Assembly (NCBI RefSeq): GCF_020055675.1
Contig: NZ_JAIPUS010000011.1
Location: 774-64,773 of the forward strand
DNA length: 64,000 bases
Source of the DNA: Marivita sp.
GTDB lineage: Bacteria > Pseudomonadota > Alphaproteobacteria > Rhodobacterales > Rhodobacteraceae
Direction: 5' to 3'
The translations under genes and the position numbers were made by a program. The notes beneath the pieces are model-generated. The model had not been told where the DNA came from. It saw only the letters and a list, made by a program, of their open reading frames with translations, and did not search any database. Shown here piece by piece: positions 13,576 to 24,835 of this stretch (the first letter of the stretch is position 1; each line of letters starts with the position of its first letter).

Positions 13576-13733
13576 GCGACCTCCATCGTCTGTACCGCCT
13601 CGGGGGGTGTCTGCTTCACGATCGGCTCCTCCGCATCTCTGTCCCATGTCGCCACGAACCAGATGAAGGATACGGCCATGCCGCCAAGAACCAGACCGAT
13701 CGCCAGAAGCGTCACCATCGTCGCGCGGTTCAT
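13572..13733 (-). CDS. 53-aa single-pass membrane protein inside the soe operon (not in ORF track)
   Basis: MNRATMVTLLAIGLVLGGMAVSFIWFVATWDRDAEEPIVKQTPPEAVQTMEVA; ATGA overlaps with soeA stop and soeB start. Confidence 0.72.
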   Translation of the reverse strand: MNRATMVTLLAIGLVLGGMAVSFIWFVATWDRDAEEPIVKQTPPEAVQTMEVA

Positions 13734-16558
13734 GTTCCCACCTTCCAGCGCAATTCGTCCGGACCTTGACCCACGGGCGATGTGATATCGTCGTGCACCG
13801 GGTGGGCTTCGTCCGGGGCGGGCACTTTCTCAATTTTCACGCGCAGGTCGAACCATGCCGCCTGCCCGGTCACCGGATCGGAATTCGACCAGCGCAGACC
13901 ATCGCCCTTAGGTGGCAGCAATTCGTGAATCAGGTGGTTCAGCAGAAAGCCCTTGGTCGCTTCCGGCGCAGTCTTGTCGAGCGCCCATGCCCCCTTGCGC
14001 TTTCCAATCGCGTTCCATGTCCAGATCGTGTTCTCGTTCAGCGCGGCCATATGCGCCACCGGGACGGTGATCTTGCCATGCGCCGAGGTGACCAAGGCCC
14101 AGTCGCCGTCCTTGAAGCCATGCTGCTCCCAGAGCTTGGTCGGCAGGTACATCGGGTTGCGCCCATGGATTTGCCGCAGCCACGCGTTCTGCGAGCCCCA
14201 AGAGTGATACATCGCCATCGGCCGTTGCGTCAGAGCGTGGACCGTGAATTCCTCGGGATCGACATGGCCATCCTCAAGCGGCGGGTACCAGATCGGAAGG
14301 GGATCGAGCGTCGCCTTCAATCGCGCGCGCAGATGCTCTGGCGGTTGGCGCTCACCATGCCCTTCGGCGGCAATCTGAAACTTGCGCATCGGCTCGACAT
14401 AAAGCTGGAAAAGGAATGGCGCCGGCGCGTCATAGAGACCGATCTCGACCGCCCAGTCCTGATACGCTGTGTTCCACGGTTTGTAATACAGCCCTTCGTC
14501 CGGGACATGCGACGACCAGAAGCCGCCATTCGCGATGTAGCTGTCAAGCTGCGCTTCGTTCACGTCGCCGCGTCCGCCGGTCAGCCCATCCTCGCCCATA
14601 CGCCAACCCGCCAACGGACCGATGCCCGGCCGGCGCTGGTGGTGGGTCATGTAGTCTGCATAATCCGCGTATTTCTGGCTGCCATCCTCGGTCACGAACC
14701 CCGGCAGATCGAGCTGCGCACCCAGGTCGCACAACACCGACTGGAAGCCCCGCACATCGCGATCTGGTTCCACCACCGGCCAGCGGATCGCATCCGCCGC
14801 CGCGTCCGCCTCGCAGATCGGACGGTCGAGCAATGAAATGCAATCGTGACGTTCCAGATAGGTCGTATCTGGCAGGATCAGGTCGGCATAGGCCACCATT
14901 TCCGAGGAATAGGCATCCGAATAGATGATCCGCGGGATCACGTATTCGCCGTTCTCGTCGGTGTCGGTCAGCATGTTCATCACGCCACCCGTGTTCATCG
15001 ACGAGTTCCAAGACATGTTGGCCATGTACATGAACAGCGTATCGATCTTGTAAGGATCGCCGGCATGCGCGTTCGAGATGACCATGTGCATCATTCCGTG
15101 TGCGCTCATCGGGTTGTCCCAGGTGAACGCCTTGTCGATGCGTGCAGGCGTGCCATCCTCCTTGAGGCACAGGTCTTCCGGGCCCTGTACAAAGCCCAGA
15201 TGCGGCCCGTCCAGTGGCTGGCCAGGGGTCACCTTGCAATGCGGCTTTGGATGCGCGGTCGCGGGTTTTGGATAGGGCGGTTTGAAACGGAAACCGCCGG
15301 GCGTCTCGACAGAGCCCAGGAGGATTTGCAACACATGCAGCGCGCGGCAGGTCTGGAAGCCGTTGGAATGGGCGCTGATCCCGCGCATCGCATGGAAGCT
15401 GACGGGGCGGCCGATCATCTTGTCGTGTTTTTCACCGCGGAAATCGGTCCAGGGCTGGTCTATCTCGATCGCTTCGTCAAAGGCCACTCGCGCGATCTCG
15501 ACGGCGATGCGCTTGATCTTGGCAGCAGGCACGCCGCAGGTCTCGGCCACGTTTTCGGGGGCGTACTCCGGGTCGAGATAGCGTTCGGCCATGAGGTGCA
15601 TCACCGGCTTGTGGGTGATCCCGGCATGGCGATAGCTGGCGGAAAGGTCTGGCTTGGTTCCCGGCTGATCGAACGGTGTCAACTTGCCCGTCACGCGGTC
15701 CATGACCAAAGGCTTGCCGTTATCATCCTTGAGGAACAACCCATGTTCGGGTGATTTCGGGTCGCCGTTCACCAGCACGGGCGCGTTGGTATAACGGGCG
15801 AGGTAATCAAGGTCGATCTTGCCGGCCTTCAGCAGTTCGTGAACCAGCGCGAGAATGAACAACCCATCGGTTCCGGGCGTGATGCCGACCCAATCGTCGG
15901 CGATCGCGTTGTAGCCGGTGCGGATCGGGTTCACCCCGATCACCTTGGCCCCGCGCTCCTTGATCTTGCCAAGGCCCATCTTGATGGGATTGCTGTCGTG
16001 ATCCTCTGCCACGCCGAACAGCATGAACAGCTTGGTGTGATCCCAGTCGGGCTGGCCGAATTCCCAGAAGGCACCGCCCATCGTGTAGATACCGGCAGCC
16101 GCCATGTTGACGGAACAAAAGCCCCCGTGCGCGGCATAGTTCGGCGTGCCGAAATTCTGCGCCCAGAAAGAGGTAAAACTTTGGGACTGGTCACGCCCTG
16201 TGAAGAACGCGAGCTTCTCGGGCGCTTCGTCACGCAGAGGTTTCAACCACCCTGTCGCGATCTCCAGCGCCTCGTCCCAGGAAATTTCCTCGAATTCACC
16301 CGACCCGCGCGGGCCGACCCGCTTGAGCGGTGCGCGCAGACGGGATGGCGCGTTGTGCTGCATGATCCCGGCGCTGCCCTTGGCGCACAGAACACCCTTG
16401 TTCACCGGGTGATCGCGGTTGCCCTCGATATAGGCGACCTTGCCATCCTTTATGTGCACGTCGATCCCGCAACGACAGGCGCACATGTAGCAAGTGGTCT
16501 TGCGCACCTCGTCCGACACCTTGGGCGACAGATTCAGGTCTGGTTGGACATGACCCAT
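13730..16558 (-). CDS. soeA: Molybdopterin oxidoreductase, SoeA-type sulfite dehydrogenase catalytic subunit
   Basis: TTCYMCACRCGI...LCAKG Fe-S motif, Mo-bisPGD motifs, no Tat signal; downstream of xsc as in Ruegeria pomeroyi soeABC; GGAGG RBS. Confidence 0.82.
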   Translation of the reverse strand: MGHVQPDLNLSPKVSDEVRKTTCYMCACRCGIDVHIKDGKVAYIEGNRDHPVNKGVLCAKGSAGIMQHNAPSRLRAPLKRVGPRGSGEFEEISWDEALEIATGWLKPLRDEAPEKLAFFTGRDQSQSFTSFWAQNFGTPNYAAHGGFCSVNMAAAGIYTMGGAFWEFGQPDWDHTKLFMLFGVAEDHDSNPIKMGLGKIKERGAKVIGVNPIRTGYNAIADDWVGITPGTDGLFILALVHELLKAGKIDLDYLARYTNAPVLVNGDPKSPEHGLFLKDDNGKPLVMDRVTGKLTPFDQPGTKPDLSASYRHAGITHKPVMHLMAERYLDPEYAPENVAETCGVPAAKIKRIAVEIARVAFDEAIEIDQPWTDFRGEKHDKMIGRPVSFHAMRGISAHSNGFQTCRALHVLQILLGSVETPGGFRFKPPYPKPATAHPKPHCKVTPGQPLDGPHLGFVQGPEDLCLKEDGTPARIDKAFTWDNPMSAHGMMHMVISNAHAGDPYKIDTLFMYMANMSWNSSMNTGGVMNMLTDTDENGEYVIPRIIYSDAYSSEMVAYADLILPDTTYLERHDCISLLDRPICEADAAADAIRWPVVEPDRDVRGFQSVLCDLGAQLDLPGFVTEDGSQKYADYADYMTHHQRRPGIGPLAGWRMGEDGLTGGRGDVNEAQLDSYIANGGFWSSHVPDEGLYYKPWNTAYQDWAVEIGLYDAPAPFLFQLYVEPMRKFQIAAEGHGERQPPEHLRARLKATLDPLPIWYPPLEDGHVDPEEFTVHALTQRPMAMYHSWGSQNAWLRQIHGRNPMYLPTKLWEQHGFKDGDWALVTSAHGKITVPVAHMAALNENTIWTWNAIGKRKGAWALDKTAPEATKGFLLNHLIHELLPPKGDGLRWSNSDPVTGQAAWFDLRVKIEKVPAPDEAHPVHDDITSPVGQGPDELRWKVGT

Positions 16559-16864
16559 GTGATTCCTCCCTCTCGCGATAGGATGGCCCCCTATCCGGTC
16601 TGGCGACAGTGTTCCCGTTTCCATCTCAATCGTAAAGGTGCAAACCGCAAGCGTTTTTCAGCAGGCTCCCCTGCCTGGTTGCGGCAGAGATCCGAACGGG
16701 CAGTCCAGATACGGCCCGCAAAAACGCGATGTCGGCCATTGCAAAAGCCGGTCTTTGCGAAACACGCCTTCCACTTGGATCACCACATCGCCGCCAAGGA
16801 TCCGATCGCGGACAATCCCGCGTCAATGACCAAGGTCAGCCCATCAGGTGTTTGGCCCCTCATG

Positions 16865-18643
16865 TCAGGCAACAGTCTGCGGACGCATGTCCGCCGGATC
16901 GATTCCCGCAACAGCAACCGGCGCCTTCATGGCGTCGCGGCGGAACGGCTCACCCAGTTCCTGATTGATCATCGCTTCGATCAGCGTGGTGGTGCCGTTC
17001 TGCATCTGATCCGTGATCGCGGTATTCAACGCGTCTGTCAGGTCGGCCATCGTCCGGACCTGAATGCCCTTGAGGCCGCAAGCCGTTGCGACGCCCGCGT
17101 AGCTGACACCTTCGTCGAGTTCCGTGCCGACGAAATTGTCGTCATACCACAACGTCGAGTTACGCTTTTCGGCGCCCCATTGGTAGTTGCGGAAGACGAT
17201 CATGGTGATCGCCGGCCATTCCGGGCGACCTATGGCGGTAAGTTCAGGCACGGCGATACCGAAGGCCCCGTCGCCCGCGAAACCGACAACTGGCACATCA
17301 GGGCAACCAATCTTCGCCCCGACGATGGACGGCAGCCCATAGCCACAGGGACCGAACAGGCCGGGCGCAAGGTATTTGCGCCCCTCCTCGAAGGACGGAT
17401 AGGCGTTGCCGATGGCGCAGTTGTTCCCGATATCGGACGAGATGATCGCCTCTCTCGGCAATGCAGACTGGATCGCGCGCCAGGCCATGCGGGGACTCAT
17501 CCAGGCCGGTTTTGCCGCGCGGGCGCGTTCGTTCCAGGTGGTGCCGGGATCGTCGTCTTCGTGATCCATGCTGGACAGTTGCTGCGCCCAGGTGGATTTC
17601 GTTTTCGCGATGGTGGCTTGCCGGTCGTCACGGCCCTCGTCGCCTGCCGTATCCGACAGGCGCGCCAGAATGCCCTCGGCCACCTTTTTCGCATCGCCGA
17701 CAATGCCGACGCTGATGGTCTTGGTCAGGCCGATGCGATCGGGATTAATGTCGACCTGAATGATTTTCGCGTCCTTTGGCCAGTAGTCGATCCCGTAACC
17801 CGGCAAGGTCGAGAACGGGTTGAGCCGCGTCCCGAGACACAGCACCACGTCCGCCTTGGAAATCAGCTCCATCCCCGCCTTCGAGCCGTTATACCCCAAC
17901 GGCCCTGCAAACAGCGGATGTGAGCCGGGAAAGGCGTCGTTGTGCTGATAGCCAACACAGACGGGTGCCGTCAGTCGTTCGGCAAGCTCTATCGAGGCCG
18001 GGATCGCCCCGGCAAGGACGACACCCGCGCCGTTGAGGATGACCGGGTTGCTGGCGTTCGACAGCAGGTCCGCCGCCTGTTGGATCGCGCCATCGCCGCC
18101 CGATGGACGTTCGAATTCCACCACTTCGGGCAGCTCGATGTCGATCACCTGGGTCCAGAAGTCGCGCGGCATGTTGATCTGCGCCGGCGCCGAGGCACGC
18201 TTGGCATTCAGGATCACGCGGTTGAGAACTTCGGCCACGCGGGAAGGATCGCGGACTTCTTCCTGATAAGCGACCATGTCTTCGAACAGTTTCATCTGCT
18301 CGACTTCCTGGAAGCCACCCATCCCGATTGTCTTGTTGGCCGCCTGCGGCGTCACCAACAGCAACGGGGTATGGTTCCAGTAAGCGGTTTTCACAGCCGT
18401 GACGAAATTGGTGATACCGGGGCCGTTCTGGGCGATCATCATCGACATCTTTCCCGATGCGCGGGTGTATCCATCCGCGATCATCCCGCCGGAGCCTTCA
18501 TGCGCACAATCCCAGAAGGTGATCCCCGCCTTGGGAAAGATGTCCGAGATCGGCATGAAAGCCGATCCGATGATCCCGAACGCATGTTCGATACCGTGCA
18601 TCTGGAGGACTTTGACAAAGGCTTCTTCGGTGGTCATTTTCAT
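16865..18643 (-). CDS. xsc: Sulfoacetaldehyde acetyltransferase (ThDP)
   Basis: MKMTTEEAFVKVLQMHGIEHAFGIIGSAFM, AGDGAFG...FRNYQWGAEKRN, NQELGEPFRRDAM. Confidence 0.95.
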   Translation of the reverse strand: MKMTTEEAFVKVLQMHGIEHAFGIIGSAFMPISDIFPKAGITFWDCAHEGSGGMIADGYTRASGKMSMMIAQNGPGITNFVTAVKTAYWNHTPLLLVTPQAANKTIGMGGFQEVEQMKLFEDMVAYQEEVRDPSRVAEVLNRVILNAKRASAPAQINMPRDFWTQVIDIELPEVVEFERPSGGDGAIQQAADLLSNASNPVILNGAGVVLAGAIPASIELAERLTAPVCVGYQHNDAFPGSHPLFAGPLGYNGSKAGMELISKADVVLCLGTRLNPFSTLPGYGIDYWPKDAKIIQVDINPDRIGLTKTISVGIVGDAKKVAEGILARLSDTAGDEGRDDRQATIAKTKSTWAQQLSSMDHEDDDPGTTWNERARAAKPAWMSPRMAWRAIQSALPREAIISSDIGNNCAIGNAYPSFEEGRKYLAPGLFGPCGYGLPSIVGAKIGCPDVPVVGFAGDGAFGIAVPELTAIGRPEWPAITMIVFRNYQWGAEKRNSTLWYDDNFVGTELDEGVSYAGVATACGLKGIQVRTMADLTDALNTAITDQMQNGTTTLIEAMINQELGEPFRRDAMKAPVAVAGIDPADMRPQTVA

Positions 18644-18952
18644 TGCGGCTCTCCCAACGATGCACGCCGACCATGCGGCCAGCACAATTCGCCACGATCC
18701 TAGCCGCCGCCACGGACACCAACTAGGACCAGTTTGGAAGGCCACCTATAGCCAAAATCGCGGGCTGACTCGCTGCAGTCTTCTTGTATTGCCCTGACCG
18801 GGATCACGTATTTGCTGCATTCCAGAGCCATTTATGCCGGATTTCAACTGCAGTATGTTGTAAGGCAGGGTTTGAGATATCCCGCTTGACGAGACGACGA
18901 GCCGGCCTCACGCACGTTAAACGCCCGGACAAGGGAACAAACAGGATCCTGA

Positions 18953-20347
18953 ATGCCAAACGCATTGGCAACACTGGCACTGGCCCTCTGGCCAATCGTC
19001 ACGGTGGCTTTCTTTCAGAAACTGCCGCCGGGCCGCGCCGTGATTGCGACATTGTTGATTGGCTACCTGTTCTTGCCGGAACCGCCTGCCGGATTCGATT
19101 TTCCATTGATTCCACCCCTGACCAAACACACCATCCCGGCGTTGAGCGCATTGGCCATGTGGGCGGTCCTGTATTCGCGAAACTTCAATCTCTTGCCGAA
19201 ATCACCGGTCACGAATTTTCTCTTCGCGCTGTTCATATTCTCGCCTATCGTCACGGCGATTTTGAACCCCTATCCGGTCTTGTGGGGCGAATTCGTGATC
19301 CCGGCAATGTCCTTCAAGGACGGCATCGGGCTTGTCATTCAGCAGGCCTTGCTGATCATCCCGTTCCTTCTGGCACGCCGGTTCCTTTACCGGGCAGAGG
19401 ACCAGCGCGATCTGCTTTTTGCCTTCGTGATCGGCGGCGTGGTTTATTCGGCCCCGATGATTGTCGAGGTTGTGCTGTCCCCACAATTGAACAGGTGGAT
19501 CTACGGCTATTTCCAGCATGAGTTCGCCCAAACGATCCGCTTTGGCGGATATCGTCCGATGGTGTTCCTCTATCATGGGATCTGGGTGGCGTTTTTCATG
19601 TTGCTGGCCATCCTTTCGGCTTTCGCCCTTTGGAAAACGCGGCAGCTCGAAACGAACTGGCACCTTCTGTTGGTCGCGCTCTACCTGACCGGCATCCTCG
19701 TGCTCGCCAAATCTCTGGGGGCCTGGTTGTACGCCGGGGTTTTGATCCCGATGGTGGCACTGGCCGGGCAGCGATGGCAGATGCGGCTGGCCGTTGTCAT
19801 CGCCGCCTTCACGATCGCCTACCCGGCGCTCAAGGGTGTGGACCTGATCCCACAGGGCAAGATCCTCTGGGCCGCAGAAAGCATAGATTCCGAACGCGCG
19901 GCATCACTGGCCTTTCGCTTCAACAACGAAAACCGGCTTCTGGAGCGTGCAAAGCAAAAACCATTGTTCGGCTGGGGCAGCTTCAACCGTAACCAGATCA
20001 TCGACACGGCCACCGGCGAGGCCGAAACGGTAACCGACGGACGCTGGGTCATCCTGATCGGGCAATTCGGCTGGCTGGGCTTTCTTGCAGAATTTTCGCT
20101 GATCGTGCTTCCGGTCTTTTTCCTGTGGCGTGAAATCCGGCACCGGGATCCGAAAGACTATTCTCCCTTCATCGTACCGCTGTCCTTGATGCTCGCGGTG
20201 AACGCATTTGACATGCTGCCCAACGCGACACTGACACCCCTGACTTGGTTGATGGCGGGGGCGCTGACCGGCTATGCCGAAACCCTGCGCCACGGTCGCA
20301 ACGCATATCTGTCCGCGGATCGGCTGCAATGGCGGCCTGTCCTGTAA
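18953..20347 (+). CDS. O-antigen ligase/Wzy-like polytopic membrane protein
   Basis: About 11-12 hydrophobic segments; RFGGYRPMVF..HG, SL.FRFNNE..LLERAKQKPLFGWG, TDG.W. Confidence 0.7.
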   Translation: MPNALATLALALWPIVTVAFFQKLPPGRAVIATLLIGYLFLPEPPAGFDFPLIPPLTKHTIPALSALAMWAVLYSRNFNLLPKSPVTNFLFALFIFSPIVTAILNPYPVLWGEFVIPAMSFKDGIGLVIQQALLIIPFLLARRFLYRAEDQRDLLFAFVIGGVVYSAPMIVEVVLSPQLNRWIYGYFQHEFAQTIRFGGYRPMVFLYHGIWVAFFMLLAILSAFALWKTRQLETNWHLLLVALYLTGILVLAKSLGAWLYAGVLIPMVALAGQRWQMRLAVVIAAFTIAYPALKGVDLIPQGKILWAAESIDSERAASLAFRFNNENRLLERAKQKPLFGWGSFNRNQIIDTATGEAETVTDGRWVILIGQFGWLGFLAEFSLIVLPVFFLWREIRHRDPKDYSPFIVPLSLMLAVNAFDMLPNATLTPLTWLMAGALTGYAETLRHGRNAYLSADRLQWRPVL

Positions 20348-20362
20348 CACGTGAGGTACGGA

Positions 20363-21649
20363 ATGACTGACCCCTCGAGCATCCGACCCCGCGTGCTCGC
20401 CATAGCCGAGGCCGCGAACCCAGAATGGGTGAGCGTGCCGCTTGTTGGCTGGTCCTTGGCGCAGGCGCTGCGCGAGGTCGCGGATGTGCACCTCGTTACG
20501 CAGATCCGGAATCGCGACGCGATCCTGCGGGCCGGGCTGGTCGAGGGTCGCGATTTCACAGCCATAGATTCCGAAGCAGTCGCCCGCCCTCTTTGGACCT
20601 TGGCCGAGAAATTGCGGATGGGCGAAGGAAAGGGCTGGACCACGCTTCAGGCATTCAATGCCCTGATCTACCCATGGTTCGAGCATCTGATCTGGAAGGA
20701 ATTCGGAAACGCGATCAAGGCCGGAGAGTTCGATCTGGTCCACCGGATCACGCCGCTCAGCCCGACCATCACATCTCCGATCGCGAAGAAGGTCGTCAAG
20801 GCCGGTGTGCCCTTCGTGCTGGGCCCCCTGAATGGAGGCGTGCCATGGCCAAGCCAATTCGACGCAGAGCGGCGTGCCGAGAAGGAATGGCTGAGCTATC
20901 TCCGAAGTGCGTACAAACATCTTCCGGGGCGGGCCAGCACGCTCAAACATGCCGCCACCATCATCGTCGGATCGCGCCACACCCAGAGCGAGGTTCCCGC
21001 CAAGCACCAGGGCAAAACCGTTTATATGCCAGAAAACGGCATTGATCCGGCGCGATTCAACCTGGCGTCAGAGCCTGACGGCGGAGTCCTTCGGGCGACC
21101 TTCGTCGGGCGACTGGTGCCCTACAAAGGCGCGGACATGCTGATCGAAGCGGCCGCGGATTTGATCGGATCGGGACGCATGACGCTTGATATCATCGGCG
21201 ACGGCCCGATGCTGGACCAGTTGACCGAACAAGCAAACTCACTGGGATGCGAAAAAGGGTTAACCTTTCACAAATGGATCCCGCATGAACAGGTCCAGTC
21301 AATTCTGAGCCGGTCGCATGTCCTGAGTTTCCCGTCGATCCGCGAATTCGGTGGCGGCGTGGTGCTCGAAGCCATGGCGTTGGGTGTGGTCCCGGTGGTC
21401 GTCGACTACGCTGGACCCGGGGAGCTTGTGACCCGGGAGACCGGCTTCAAGGTTCCCTGCGGCAGCCGCGACGAGATCATCGAGGGCTTCCGCTCCACCC
21501 TGTCGGACGTCGCGGAAAATCCAGCGCGTCTGGGTCCGGTGGCGGAAAACGCGAAACGCCTTGTGCAGTCGCAGTTCCTGTGGTCGCGCAAAGCCGAACA
21601 AGTCCGGCGCGTCTATGACCGGGCCTTGGCGAAGGACAGGCCGGATTAG
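20363..21649 (+). CDS. Glycosyltransferase family 4
   Basis: FVGRLVPYKG, IIGDGP, FPSIREFGGGVVLEAMALG (EX7E). Confidence 0.88.
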   Translation: MTDPSSIRPRVLAIAEAANPEWVSVPLVGWSLAQALREVADVHLVTQIRNRDAILRAGLVEGRDFTAIDSEAVARPLWTLAEKLRMGEGKGWTTLQAFNALIYPWFEHLIWKEFGNAIKAGEFDLVHRITPLSPTITSPIAKKVVKAGVPFVLGPLNGGVPWPSQFDAERRAEKEWLSYLRSAYKHLPGRASTLKHAATIIVGSRHTQSEVPAKHQGKTVYMPENGIDPARFNLASEPDGGVLRATFVGRLVPYKGADMLIEAAADLIGSGRMTLDIIGDGPMLDQLTEQANSLGCEKGLTFHKWIPHEQVQSILSRSHVLSFPSIREFGGGVVLEAMALGVVPVVVDYAGPGELVTRETGFKVPCGSRDEIIEGFRSTLSDVAENPARLGPVAENAKRLVQSQFLWSRKAEQVRRVYDRALAKDRPD

Positions 21650-21880
21650 GGCTTGCACCCTAACCCGACCTTTTTGTGGCGCGCAGGCGTCACCCGGCAT
21701 AAAACCCCGTTTGACATATTGTTTCTGCATTGATCGTTGCCAGGGCTGCACCCCGGCTGTTATGCGTCATCCATGGCGTGGGGGCGCTTAAGATAGAATT
21801 GTGTCGCTTTGCCTGCCCGATCGCAATTAAAAGTTTGGAACCTGTTCCGGATCAGAGACACGGACTCTGCACGCTCTGAA

Positions 21881-23833
21881 ATGCGGCAGTTCCTGTTCGC
21901 GATGGCGTGCCTCGCATTCCTGTTGTCGGCCCTCGGGTTTGGGAGCATCAGCGCGAACATCTTTGCTGCCGACATCGTACTCGTATTCTGCGGCGCATGG
22001 TGCGCCAATCAACTGATCCGTGGGCCGCAGATATTCAAAGCCCAGGCGATCTGTGTCCTGCAAGCCTATTTCATCGGCGTCTTTTGCATTTCGACCCTGC
22101 TCTACGTTGCGGGGTGGTTCTTGTTCCTGCCCGTCGAGTATCAGAACCTCGGTCACGCGCTCTTGCTGGCGGCCACGTTTTCAACCAACCTCGGATTGGT
22201 GTTTTTCCCGGTCGACAGCGGATTGCGCTTTGACGGGTTGTTCCATCACCTCTGGCTGCCTGCCTTGATCGCGCAATGCTGCGCCATTCTGTCGTTTATC
22301 TTCTGGCGCCTTTACCGCAACCAGATCCGGCTTCTGGTCGTTCTGGGGGTGATCGCCTGCCTGTCGCTGGTGTTGTCGCTGATTGAAACGCAGATGGTGA
22401 AGATGCTGCCAATCGGCGGCCTGTGGGCCTTCCTGTTCGGGGCGGTACCGTTCATTGCCACGCACCGGTTCCAGGTCCTGAAATACGCGTCGATGATCGG
22501 GGCTATCAACCTCATTGCCGGGATCATGGCGATCACCGCGACGGGCGATACGATCTTTGCGCGCGCCCTTGTCGCGCTCGGTCTGTCTTTCCTCTATGTC
22601 GGCAGTCGCCCTCGAGAGATGGACACCGACGCCACGATGCAACGCCGCCGCTGGTTCGGGATGATGTTGCACACGTTTCTCTGGGCGGTGCCGCTGGCAC
22701 AGTTGAATGCCGGGCTCCACATCCTGACGCCGGGCCAGGCCGATGTGCTGCTGCTGATATTCCCTTGCCTCGTCTTTGCGATCTTTTCGTGGACCATCTG
22801 GCAACATGTCGAGCAAAAGGCAGGGCGGAACCGTTTCTTCATCAGCGCGTCTGTATCGATTGTTCTCGTCATCAACGGGCTGATCGGCGCAGCGACGCAG
22901 GGAGCCGCGTTCCGGTTTCCCGAGGTGTCACAAGCCTACCTGACGGCGCTGGATGCACCGGAACCGGCGTTCACCTGCCCGCTTGAAACCGAGGGGCCGC
23001 TTGACGGGCTGGCAGTGTGCCACCTTGGCCCCAAGGGCGCGCCAGAGGCTCTGATATGGGGCGATCACCAACTGGACGCCTTGCGCGCCGGCTATTCCGA
23101 GGCAGCCCGCCGCACTGATATCCCGACGCTCCTGATCGGGCGAACGGATTGTATACCGCTCGACCGCTTGCAAACGCGGTTCCCGGCGAGCGCCGAACAG
23201 TCGGGACGGCAATGCGACCGGCAATCCGCACAGATCCTCCAGGCGCTGCCACACCTGCCCGGCATAAGGCAGGTCACTCTCGTGGGCGATTGGCTCCATT
23301 ACACGAATACCCGCTCCACCGAACTGTCGCCGCGCGTGCCGATCCGGATTGGGCCCAGTGATGGAACGCCGATCAATCTGGACCATCAAACCGCCTATAT
23401 CGCCACCGCGGCCGAACACACCACCCGAATGCTGACAGAGCAGGGCATTCGTGTCTCAGTGCTGCGCCAGGTCCCGTCACAGCCCCGGTTCGACGCGGAG
23501 CTGGCCGCCCGCGCTGACGTTCCCGGGGCGCAGTTCTACGTCAACCTGCCTCGAATTTCCCTTGGCACTGACAAACAGGCAGCCGCGGCGCGCCACGCCG
23601 AAATTGACGGTCTGTTCAATGATCTGGCGGTGAAAGGGCTTCTCAGCTATGTGAATTCATGGCCCGCATTCTGCAGCGATCTGCGCTGTGACGTGCGCGG
23701 CGGGTTGTCCAGCGACTATCTCACCTCAACGCGTCTGACTCCCAGCGGTGCACTGTCGCTCAGCGATATCCTTGCCGAAGACCTGAAGCGGGTGAAAACG
23801 CACACACCGATCCGGCGCGGGATGGGAAGCTGA
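21881..23833 (+). CDS. Acyltransferase-3/SGNH fusion-like protein with degenerate catalytic motifs
   Basis: About 10 TM N-terminal domain with remote AT3 similarity; periplasmic domain with LIWGD, Cys pairs and VTLVGDW; Ser and DxxH not found; start estimated. Confidence 0.62.
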   Translation: MRQFLFAMACLAFLLSALGFGSISANIFAADIVLVFCGAWCANQLIRGPQIFKAQAICVLQAYFIGVFCISTLLYVAGWFLFLPVEYQNLGHALLLAATFSTNLGLVFFPVDSGLRFDGLFHHLWLPALIAQCCAILSFIFWRLYRNQIRLLVVLGVIACLSLVLSLIETQMVKMLPIGGLWAFLFGAVPFIATHRFQVLKYASMIGAINLIAGIMAITATGDTIFARALVALGLSFLYVGSRPREMDTDATMQRRRWFGMMLHTFLWAVPLAQLNAGLHILTPGQADVLLLIFPCLVFAIFSWTIWQHVEQKAGRNRFFISASVSIVLVINGLIGAATQGAAFRFPEVSQAYLTALDAPEPAFTCPLETEGPLDGLAVCHLGPKGAPEALIWGDHQLDALRAGYSEAARRTDIPTLLIGRTDCIPLDRLQTRFPASAEQSGRQCDRQSAQILQALPHLPGIRQVTLVGDWLHYTNTRSTELSPRVPIRIGPSDGTPINLDHQTAYIATAAEHTTRMLTEQGIRVSVLRQVPSQPRFDAELAARADVPGAQFYVNLPRISLGTDKQAAAARHAEIDGLFNDLAVKGLLSYVNSWPAFCSDLRCDVRGGLSSDYLTSTRLTPSGALSLSDILAEDLKRVKTHTPIRRGMGS

Positions 23834-24835
23834 TCAAGCGGCCTGTGTGGCCATCAACTCCTTCCAGCGGTGGCAGGACACGGCATGTCCCGCGCCGTCG
23901 ATTTCCAATTGCGGCTCGACCTGTTTGCAATGGTCGATCGCATGCGGACAGCGCGTGTGGAATTTGCAGCCCGAGGGCTGGTTCGTGGGTGACGGGATTT
24001 CGCCTGTCAGCTTTTGCACCGCACCCCGATCATCGGGATCAAGCGACGGGATCGCCGAAAACAAGGCCCTCGTGTAGGGATGACGCGCTGCTTCGAAAAG
24101 CTTGCGCGTGGGCGCGGTTTCGACCAGCCGGCCCAGATACATGACCGCGACATGATCACAGGTATGGGCAACCACCGACAGATCATGACTGATGAACATG
24201 AATGTAACGCCCATGTCGGACTGGATCTGCTTCAAAAGATTCAGAACATCCGCCTGGATCGACACATCGAGCGCGGCGACGCTTTCATCGGCAACGATGA
24301 AGTTCGGAGCCGAGACAAGCGCGCGCGCGATCGAGATCCGCTGACGCTGGCCGCCAGAAAATGCATGCGGGAAACGACGCAGATGCTCTAGGTTGAGCCG
24401 GCATTTCGCCGCGATCTCGCGCACGCGCTTGTCGGTTTCCTGACGCGTTTTGGTCAGGCCCATCACTTCCAGCGGTTCGGCGATAATGTCGCGCACCGTC
24501 ATGCGCGGGCTCAAGGCCGCGTATGGATCCTGAAAGATCAGCTGCGCCCGTTTGCGATAATCCTTGAGCTGGTTCTTGGTGATGTTTTCGAGGTCGTATT
24601 CCACCTCTCCATCGCTGTAATGCGCGCCGCCCCCTGTGATCGGAACTGCCTTGAGAAGCGCGCGCCCCAGCGTTGTCTTGCCCGACCCGCTTTCCCCGAC
24701 AAGTCCAAAGACAGATCCCTTTTCGATGTCCAGCGACACGTCATCGACTGCCTTGAGGATCTGCTTGCTGAACAGGCCGGAGCCTATGGGAAACCCGACG
24801 GACAGGCTCTTCGCTCGGATCAGTATGTCGCTCAC
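23834..24835 (-). CDS. Oligopeptide-type ABC ATP-binding protein (OppF-like)
   Basis: GESGSGKT, FSGGQRQRI, DESVAALD, C-terminal CKFHTRC. Confidence 0.9.
   Translation of the reverse strand: MSDILIRAKSLSVGFPIGSGLFSKQILKAVDDVSLDIEKGSVFGLVGESGSGKTTLGRALLKAVPITGGGAHYSDGEVEYDLENITKNQLKDYRKRAQLIFQDPYAALSPRMTVRDIIAEPLEVMGLTKTRQETDKRVREIAAKCRLNLEHLRRFPHAFSGGQRQRISIARALVSAPNFIVADESVAALDVSIQADVLNLLKQIQSDMGVTFMFISHDLSVVAHTCDHVAVMYLGRLVETAPTRKLFEAARHPYTRALFSAIPSLDPDDRGAVQKLTGEIPSPTNQPSGCKFHTRCPHAIDHCKQVEPQLEIDGAGHAVSCHRWKELMATQAA

Follow-up and report, generated by a model that had tools for sequence, protein, structure and literature searches.

What keeps a protein in a genome when it has the full length and layout of an O-acyltransferase and hardly any of the catalytic residues? 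The question is raised by a gene in the window, which is the whole 64,000-nucleotide stretch of Marivita sp. DNA analysed here (contig NZ_JAIPUS010000011.1, positions 774 to 64,773 of the forward strand). The gene codes for a homologue of the AT3-SGNH proteins, in which a membrane acyltransferase domain (AT3) is fused to a periplasmic SGNH domain, and it follows genes for a Wzy-like membrane protein and a GT4 glycosyltransferase. AT3-SGNH proteins have been studied as acylating enzymes of O-antigen, peptidoglycan and other surface glycans. In our judgement the Marivita protein is probably a non-catalytic pseudoenzyme that has been maintained by selection in a Wzy-like/GT4 glycan pathway. An earlier interpretation of the letters of this DNA, below called the sequence-only reading, had also suggested a pseudoenzyme.

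Catalytic residues are replaced in both domains

The residues that matter for acyl transfer are known from alanine substitutions in OafA of Salmonella. The variants R14A, H25A, D39A, R69A, R72A, S112A, S412A and H590A have less than 1% activity and D587A has 10% (PMC7448272, accessible part). His25 and the arginines are modelled as lining the acetyl-CoA channel, and substrate recognition and hand-over between the AT3 and SGNH domains are still modelled rather than seen (PMC9833829, accessible part).

We compared these positions in an alignment of 150 sequences, consisting of the query and 41 orthologues (42 rows), five odd relatives and the 103 nearest canonical representatives. Each key catalytic residue is present in 101–103 of the 103 canonical sequences and in none of the 42 orthologue rows, with the SGNH Asp (1/42) as the sole exception. 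In particular, the helix-1 His, both arginines of RXXR, the first Glu of VEEQ, the Arg of FRAWE and the Ser, Asp and His of the SGNH domain are found in 103/103 canonical sequences, and the helix-1 Arg, the Ser of HTWS and the second Glu of VEEQ in 101/103. In the orthologue rows the SGNH Ser is replaced by His (41) or Gln (1) and the SGNH His by Arg (29), Leu (8), Gln (4) or Thr (1). The Glu of FRAWE is Ala or Pro in the three orthologous sequences in which it was typed. Judged from this alignment, the catalytic loss is far beyond chance.

The replaced motifs of the window protein are listed in Table 1; residues are numbered throughout from ATG 21881. The DxxR and R-X10-H patterns of helix 1 are gone, and the Asp and Gly of the former have become Arg2 and Gln3, both of which are switch positions. 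A total of 31 positions are fixed in both the orthologous and the canonical groups, but to different residues. The membrane-domain replacements Gln55, Ile57, Cys58, Leu124, Ile130, Gly179 and Ala183 are all uncharged. The sequence-only reading had listed AADIVLVFCG, the absence of RRxRR, HHLWLPALIAQC in place of HTWSLAVEEQFY, GDH and TSTR, all of which prove to be correct together with their positions. The missing DGLRA..H start that it had noticed corresponds to the helix-1 Arg and His that no orthologue possesses. It had also considered that the catalytic residues might be retained in shifted positions. This is ruled out, as the 650-residue reading contains no His before residue 91 and no Ser is present in or adjoining block I, and the key positions are replaced throughout the orthologue rows.

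What is common to the two groups is equally well defined. Asp31, His123, Trp125, Gln132, Trp182, Gly187, the Glu after the last helix (Glu311) and six periplasmic cysteines are shared. Asp31 and His123 are present in 42/42 orthologue rows, Trp125 is invariant in all 150 aligned rows, and Gln132 and the six cysteines are conserved in at least 90%. The cysteines (366, 380, 424, 445, 598 and 603) appear to follow the order of the three disulfide pairs described for OafA (PMC7448272, accessible part). The protein thus resembles OafA and OafB in its two-domain architecture, length class and cysteine order, and in keeping, as Asp31, the Asp of the periplasmic loop (Asp39 in OafA). It differs from OafA in that the equivalents of Arg14, His25, Arg69, Arg72, Ser112, Ser412, His590 and Asp587 are all replaced. 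Conservation within the orthologue group is also highest in the segments where the old motifs stood, with a mean top-residue frequency of 0.81–0.91 versus 0.71 overall.

Family membership and predicted fold

Profile comparison indicates that the protein is a full-length homologue of the AT3-SGNH O-acyltransferases, the membrane half included. PF19040, which describes SGNH domains fused to AT3, matches residues 371–632 with E = 8.3e-29 (101.4 bits, cut-off 27). In contrast to OafA and OafB, the membrane domain is no longer detected by the AT3 family PF01757 (Acyl_transf_3), which is absent from the Pfam matches even at E ≤ 10, whereas canonical neighbours score 69–117 bits. The canonical protein P0043, which matches both families, can nevertheless be aligned to 97% of the query (24% identity). 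A search with the family profile returned 27,697 cluster representatives at E ≤ 1e-3, and the best canonical ones span profile positions 4–636 with E-values of 1e-55 to 1e-123. The only NCBIfam match of the protein is EccE (E = 1.3), a chance match.

The AlphaFold2 model calculated from the 150-row alignment is confident (mean predicted local distance difference test score, pLDDT, 91.3; predicted template modelling score 0.87). Structures were compared with a set of 48,161 PDB representative chains. The periplasmic part (model residues 347–637) best matches the solved OafB domain (PDB entry 6SE1, chain A) with Z = 17.7, a root-mean-square deviation of 4.2 and 243 of 261 residues aligned, and the match takes in the SGNH extension. 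The GDS and DxxH columns of the profile line up with GDS and DWGH of this structure. Foldseek likewise places 6SE1 on top (E = 8.6e-6); with the full model it returned SGNH chains only and no match of the membrane domain. A search of the PDB with the single protein sequence gave nothing at E ≤ 1, and 6SE1 was reached only with the 150-sequence profile.

The membrane domain was also folded alone (AlphaFold2, 369 residues, 36-row alignment, pLDDT 75.9). AT3 has been assigned to the TmAT superfamily, of which HGSNAT and GWT1 are the solved members (PMC12423673, accessible part). These are also the top three matches of this model: HGSNAT 8JKV (Z = 11.0, 265 residues aligned), HGSNAT 8TU9 (Z = 10.0) and GWT1 8XIK (Z = 8.4, 253 aligned). 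Later matches have Z ≤ 7.3 and far shorter aligned stretches. HGSNAT and GWT1 are active enzymes and share only 6–13% sequence identity with the Marivita protein, and the match therefore shows the fold only. The ten-helix TmAT membrane fold and the OafB-type extended SGNH fold are thus both predicted to be kept.

Selection and retention within Marivita

The ratio of nonsynonymous to synonymous substitution rates (dN/dS) was calculated by the Nei–Gojobori method on codon alignments. It is 0.19 (dS 0.22) between the window and its closest relative, locus L002, and 0.06 (dS 0.81) between loci L003 and L006. In the first pair the membrane and periplasmic halves have nearly identical values (0.19 and 0.20), the Wzy-like gene 0.13, the GT4 gene 0.165 and the flanking ABC genes 0.03–0.08. 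Most other pairs are saturated; dS is below 2.5 in 17 of 55, for which the median dN/dS is 0.16. The gene has no internal stop codon in any of the 11 loci compared, the window and ten further Marivita-type loci.

The gene is present in 28/28 Marivita species genomes at 48–100% identity, and 26 of these contain a single full-length match free of stops. It is under purifying selection in both halves across the genus. Genome G414 has one internal TGA (C11:222-2168, near the contig start), and in genome G424 the last ∼50 residues lie ∼2.7 kb away from the rest of the gene (C1:90995-95657), maybe as a result of an insertion.

Start and end of the gene

The sequence-only reading had given an unbroken 650-residue frame. 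The frame is indeed unbroken, and translation from ATG 21881 gives this 650-residue protein (P0001), but the start was placed too far downstream. The codon 24 positions upstream (TTG 21809) is TTG or GTG in 11/11 loci, the 24 residues in between are conserved as protein, and the codon at 21881 is Leu or Ile instead of ATG in 4/11 loci. For these reasons the gene most likely starts at TTG 21809, as judged by comparison between loci, and codes for 674 rather than 650 residues.

At the other end, the stop codon ends at 23833 and that of the convergent ABC ATPase gene at 23834 (window 23831–23836). The genes thus meet tail to tail, which leaves no space for separate terminators.

Table 1. Features of the Marivita locus (positions refer to the window, residues to the reading from ATG 21881)
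Feature	Position	Strand	Remarks
Wzy-like (O-antigen polymerase/ligase family) membrane protein	18953..20347	+	Cassette gene 1; PF04932 E = 8.9e-7, below cut-off
GT4 glycosyltransferase	20351..21649	+	Cassette gene 2; PF00534 E = 2.3e-28
Coding sequence of the AT3-SGNH homologue	21809..23833	+	Unbroken open reading frame, 674 residues from TTG 21809, stop included
Conserved 24-residue N-terminal extension	21809..21880	+	Peptide ..(K/R)D(T/S)(D/E)xARSE kept as protein
Membrane domain, AT3/TmAT-like fold without catalytic residues (predicted)	21881..22900	+	Residues 1–340; homology and matches of the membrane-domain model
AADIVLVFCG	21965..21994	+	Residues 29–38; equivalent of GVDxFFxISG, only Asp (D31) and Gly survive
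KAQAICV	22037..22057	+	Equivalent of RRxRR/RXXR; arginines replaced by Q55, I57, C58
HHLWLPALIAQC	22244..22279	+	Residues 122–133; equivalent of HTWSLAVEEQFY; H123, W125 and Q132 kept, Ser and both Glu lost
Periplasmic OafB-type extended SGNH-like domain (predicted)	22919..23791	+	Residues 347–637; PF19040 and 6SE1 matches
Block I, WGDHQL	23057..23074	+	Nucleophile Ser replaced by His396, next His by Gln397; GDH is residues 394–396 (23060–23068)
Block III region, VGDWLHY	23282..23302	+	Conserved Arg of canonical GRW replaced by Asp470 (switch position)
Block V, DYLTSTRLT	23714..23740	+	Asp replaced by T615 and His by R618 (T615 to R618, 23723–23734)

The Wzy-like/GT4 cassette

The gene is the third of a cassette on the forward strand, flanked by a divergent gene for a thiamine pyrophosphate (TPP) enzyme on one side and a convergent ABC operon on the other. 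The order Wzy-like, GT4 and AT3-SGNH is identical in 8/8 of the loci that span all three genes among the ten Marivita-type loci; the remaining two are at a contig end. The Wzy-like protein has neighbour clusters named O-antigen polymerase or ligase, and its profile has no match in the PDB. The GT4 protein scores 508 bits with the EPS_EpsH-like family NF041879, under the cut-off of 800 bits. An attempt to name the polysaccharide through the NCBIfam neighbours of EPS_EpsH was rejected, with NF041878 being unrelated and NF041880 (EpsF) matching 30 regulator-like genes. Among the papers listed on Marivita exopolysaccharide there was nothing on the cassette genes.

Between Marivita species, the three genes of the cassette have diverged far more rapidly than their flanks (59–81% versus 86–96% protein identity), which is typical of surface-glycan loci. 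Among the Marivita-type loci the Wzy-like proteins are 66–79% identical, the GT4 proteins 76–81% and the products of the flanking genes 86–96%. In the window, the TPP-enzyme gene sits between a molybdopterin oxidoreductase gene and the Wzy-like gene (13730–18953). In the closest relative, L002 (91% identity; L002:1-3073), it is cut to ∼66 residues, apparently because most of the gene has been deleted.

Neither PF01757 nor the other membrane acyltransferase family that was considered, PF03062 (MBOAT), has any match in the genome of the window, which is 99.93% complete, and the only PF19040 match is the protein under study. No second membrane acyltransferase from any known family can therefore supply its SGNH domain. 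When the Wzy-like protein and the membrane domain (residues 1–345) were modelled as a complex, the prediction gave no answer (score 0.00) and weighs neither way.

Relatives with intact residues and the origin of the family

We surveyed 400 other Rhodobacteraceae genera, each represented by a single genome. An AT3-SGNH homologue is found in 41 of them (24–30% identity) and an orthologue of the Wzy-like protein in 147 (36–57% identity). A comparison of coordinates by hand places the homologue no more than 5 kb from the Wzy-like gene, with both on one strand, in 20 of the 41 genera. In nine it lies 29–38 kb away, and in 12 it is farther off, on another contig or without a Wzy-like match. The recurrent spacing of 29–38 kb (G344, G093, G342, G099, G029, G064, G223, G038 and G138) may mean that a larger surface-glycan region has a second conserved layout. 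In genome G355 a Wzy-like match that adjoins a canonical AT3-SGNH gene falls into two pieces (C25:578156-579571; query residues 1–231 and 240–449), and the Wzy-like gene may be frameshifted there.

All 14 key residues are kept in 28 of the 29 homologue loci that were returned, the exception being the partially degraded copy of genome G364. The loss in Marivita is therefore real and not a slip of the alignment. Locus L043 (genome G137) is representative of an intact cassette and contains, in this order, genes for a Wzy-like protein, GT4, GNAT, a canonical AT3-SGNH protein, a GMC oxidoreductase, SDR and GFO/IDH/MocA. As in Marivita, the Wzy-like (53% identity) and GT4 (36%) genes are followed by AT3-SGNH on one strand. 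L043 differs in its additional GNAT, GMC-oxidoreductase, SDR and GFO/IDH/MocA genes, which the Marivita cassette lacks. The canonical cassette AT3-SGNH proteins differ from that of Marivita in keeping 14/14 key residues and in matching PF01757.

A tree was calculated with IQ-TREE (LG+C20, short search) from 34 rows: six family members, P0045, four partially degraded relatives, the three nearest canonical representatives, 14 Rhodobacteraceae loci and, as the root, six non-Rhodobacteraceae representatives; the rest were left out. The Marivita proteins and P0045 group with P0049, P0050 and P0051 (SH-like approximate likelihood ratio test 99), and this group, including the partially degraded forms, is nested inside the clade of canonical proteins encoded near Wzy-like genes (support 98 and 99). 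The stem of the Marivita clade measures 3.88 substitutions per site, and 2.14 in a FastTree tree of 77 rows. Because long branches meet in the tree, the exact sister relation is provisional. Descent of the Marivita protein from cassette AT3-SGNH proteins with intact, presumably active residue sets is what the tree shows.

Relatives with partial loss

In P0049, P0050, P0051 and P0052 the SGNH Ser is replaced by Glu, Asp, Asp and His, respectively, as it is replaced in the Marivita protein, and the SGNH His is Arg in three of the four; their HTWSLAVEEQ motif is degraded as well. Unlike the Marivita protein, each of them retains the Asp of block V and the Arg of helix 1. P0050 and P0052 also retain the His of helix 1, and both RXXR arginines are kept in three (P0050 has Ser at the second). 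P0049 is an 'acyltransferase family protein' of Thetidibacter halocola; it is identical to the G364 copy, which still matches PF01757 (E = 4e-19). The series reads as an inactivation of the SGNH domain first, with the channel residues apparently lost later.

P0052 combines GDH and DSNR in its SGNH domain with an R-X10-H pattern and RRIRR that are kept. It falls elsewhere in the tree, away from the other partially degraded forms (loci L028 and L040 were also noted in the trees), which points to an independent SGNH loss. The triad has thus probably been lost more than once among Rhodobacteraceae AT3-SGNH proteins.

In G364, an open reading frame of 731 residues without a Pfam match is found directly upstream of the partially degraded gene (L042:6508-8703). 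GMC-oxidoreductase and GFO/IDH/MocA genes follow downstream, as in L043.

A probable non-catalytic role in glycan assembly and its alternatives

The probable history of the protein would be as follows. The ancestor would have been a Rhodobacteraceae AT3-SGNH O-acyltransferase that decorated the glycan of the adjoining Wzy-like and GT4 proteins. On one very long branch its membrane domain would have lost the residues needed for holding acyl-CoA and for transferring the acyl group: DxxR and R-X10-H of helix 1, RXXR, the loop Ser, two Glu, and the Arg and Glu of FRAWE. The periplasmic Ser-His-Asp triad would have been lost on the same branch, with both folds and the six disulfide cysteines being kept. 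The conserved former active-site cleft and the uncharged former acyl-CoA channel would now bind a glycan or a lipid-linked precursor instead of modifying it, making the protein a binding or escort subunit of the Wzy-like/GT4 pathway.

Since both residue sets are lost, the protein should not be able to work as an acyltransferase, and we infer that this activity is absent. The constraint on the membrane half equals that on the periplasmic half, which disfavours a mere anchor. The conserved cleft favours a retained ligand site, and the loss of every charged channel residue disfavours the binding of acyl-CoA and favours a closed or lipid-facing channel. A role through the binding of glycan or lipid is thus probable. 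The sequence-only reading had proposed a pseudoenzyme repurposed as a scaffold, sensor or transport partner in polysaccharide assembly. Its pseudoenzyme part is borne out by the absence of both catalytic sets, the kept predicted fold, the purifying selection and the presence in every Marivita genome, and the conserved cassette supports the link to polysaccharide assembly. The protein may be a scaffold or a transport partner; a role as a sensor finds no support, as no output domain was found.

Precedents for such a course of evolution exist in other families. In iRhoms and in inactive carbohydrate-enzyme folds that act as binders, the fold and the shape of the site are kept while the chemistry is lost, and selection acts on binding or regulation. 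These families are unrelated to AT3-SGNH proteins and provide an analogy only. In the literature searched, outside which many subscription papers lie, we found no report of an AT3 or AT3-SGNH protein that is inactive; what it offers on SGNH pseudoenzymes concerns unrelated lipases and plant GDSL annotation. The words inactive, non-catalytic, degenerate and pseudo are absent from the reviews PMC9558356 and PMC12423673.

Several observations weigh against a non-catalytic role in this pathway. The evidence for inactivity comes from the sequence and from mutants of distant relatives (∼20% identity). His396 occupies the old nucleophile site in 41/42 orthologue rows, and a conserved RGGLSSDY precedes block V. 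Compared with the other two cassette genes, this one evolves faster; it is ∼60% identical to those of the other Marivita-type loci. The Wzy-like gene is present in 147 of the 400 genera surveyed and any AT3-SGNH protein in only 41, so that the pathway generally does not need such a protein. Finally, according to the program's own warning, the grouping with the partially degraded relatives could in part be long-branch attraction.

His396 and RGGLSSDY could belong to a rebuilt active site. In that case the protein would be a new enzyme, in which His396, together with the Ser/Asp of RGGLSSDY or with Asp470, would catalyse a new reaction on the glycan and the membrane domain would serve as an anchor or conduit. 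Both the strong conservation of the former active-site blocks, with His396 nearly invariant, and the charge-swapped switch positions (Arg to Asp470, His to Gln397) would be expected of such an enzyme, and a very long stem followed by constraint resembles adaptive remodelling. However, one orthologue has Gln at position 396, the old His site is occupied by four different residues, the charged residues of the membrane channel are now all uncharged and the genome contains no AT3 or MBOAT match that could supply a donor. We also know of no SGNH chemistry with such a residue set. We therefore regard a rebuilt active site as unlikely.

The protein could also be non-catalytic and act outside the Wzy-like/GT4 pathway, for example as a structural protein of the envelope, its place in the cassette being merely inherited. 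This would agree with the gap of 160 nucleotides that separates the gene from GT4, compared with three nucleotides between the Wzy-like and GT4 genes, and with the closest partially degraded relative, that of G364, being encoded 167 kb from its Wzy-like gene. On the other hand, the gap contains no terminator-like site, and the gene order is kept in all eight three-gene loci over a protein identity range of 59–91%. We find this explanation quite unlikely.

That the protein is still an acyltransferase, either because the alignment is misleading or because other residues do the same job, is very improbable. It does retain Asp31, His123, Trp125, Gln132 and Glu311, and the TmAT member GWT1 is functional although it has neither the DxxR Asp nor the His that serves catalysis in HGSNAT (PMC12423673, accessible part). 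Against this, His is absent from the first 90 residues, none of the three channel positions is Arg, and the catalytic Ser, Asp and His of the SGNH domain, whose profile columns line up with GDS and DxxH of OafB, are all missing. A functionless relic in slow decay, to which the fastest evolution of the neighbourhood, an internal TGA in one genome and a split gene in another might point, and with which the sequence-only reading had also reckoned, receives next to no credence from us, given dN/dS values of 0.06–0.19 in two unsaturated pairs with equal halves for the window and L002, full-length stop-free matches in 26/28 genomes down to 48% identity and a confident AlphaFold2 model.

Implications for AT3-SGNH proteins

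The role as a non-catalytic binding protein of the pathway can be taken one step further. The protein might be an obligatory non-catalytic subunit of a Wzy-like polymerase or ligase machine, with the cleft holding the nascent glycan and the apolar channel the lipid carrier. We consider this extension doubtful. If it is true, AT3-SGNH proteins would generally make physical contact with Wzy/WaaL-type enzymes, and the part of their mechanism that concerns binding could evolve independently after the loss of catalysis, with the partially degraded relatives as snapshots of this process.

For annotation, the names 'SGNH hydrolase domain-containing protein' and, for the partially degraded relative, 'acyltransferase family protein' imply an activity that is very probably absent. 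For the biology of the family, the Marivita proteins would represent a natural separation of binding from catalysis, with graded intermediates in sister genera, and they suggest a second, non-catalytic role of AT3-SGNH proteins in glycan assembly.

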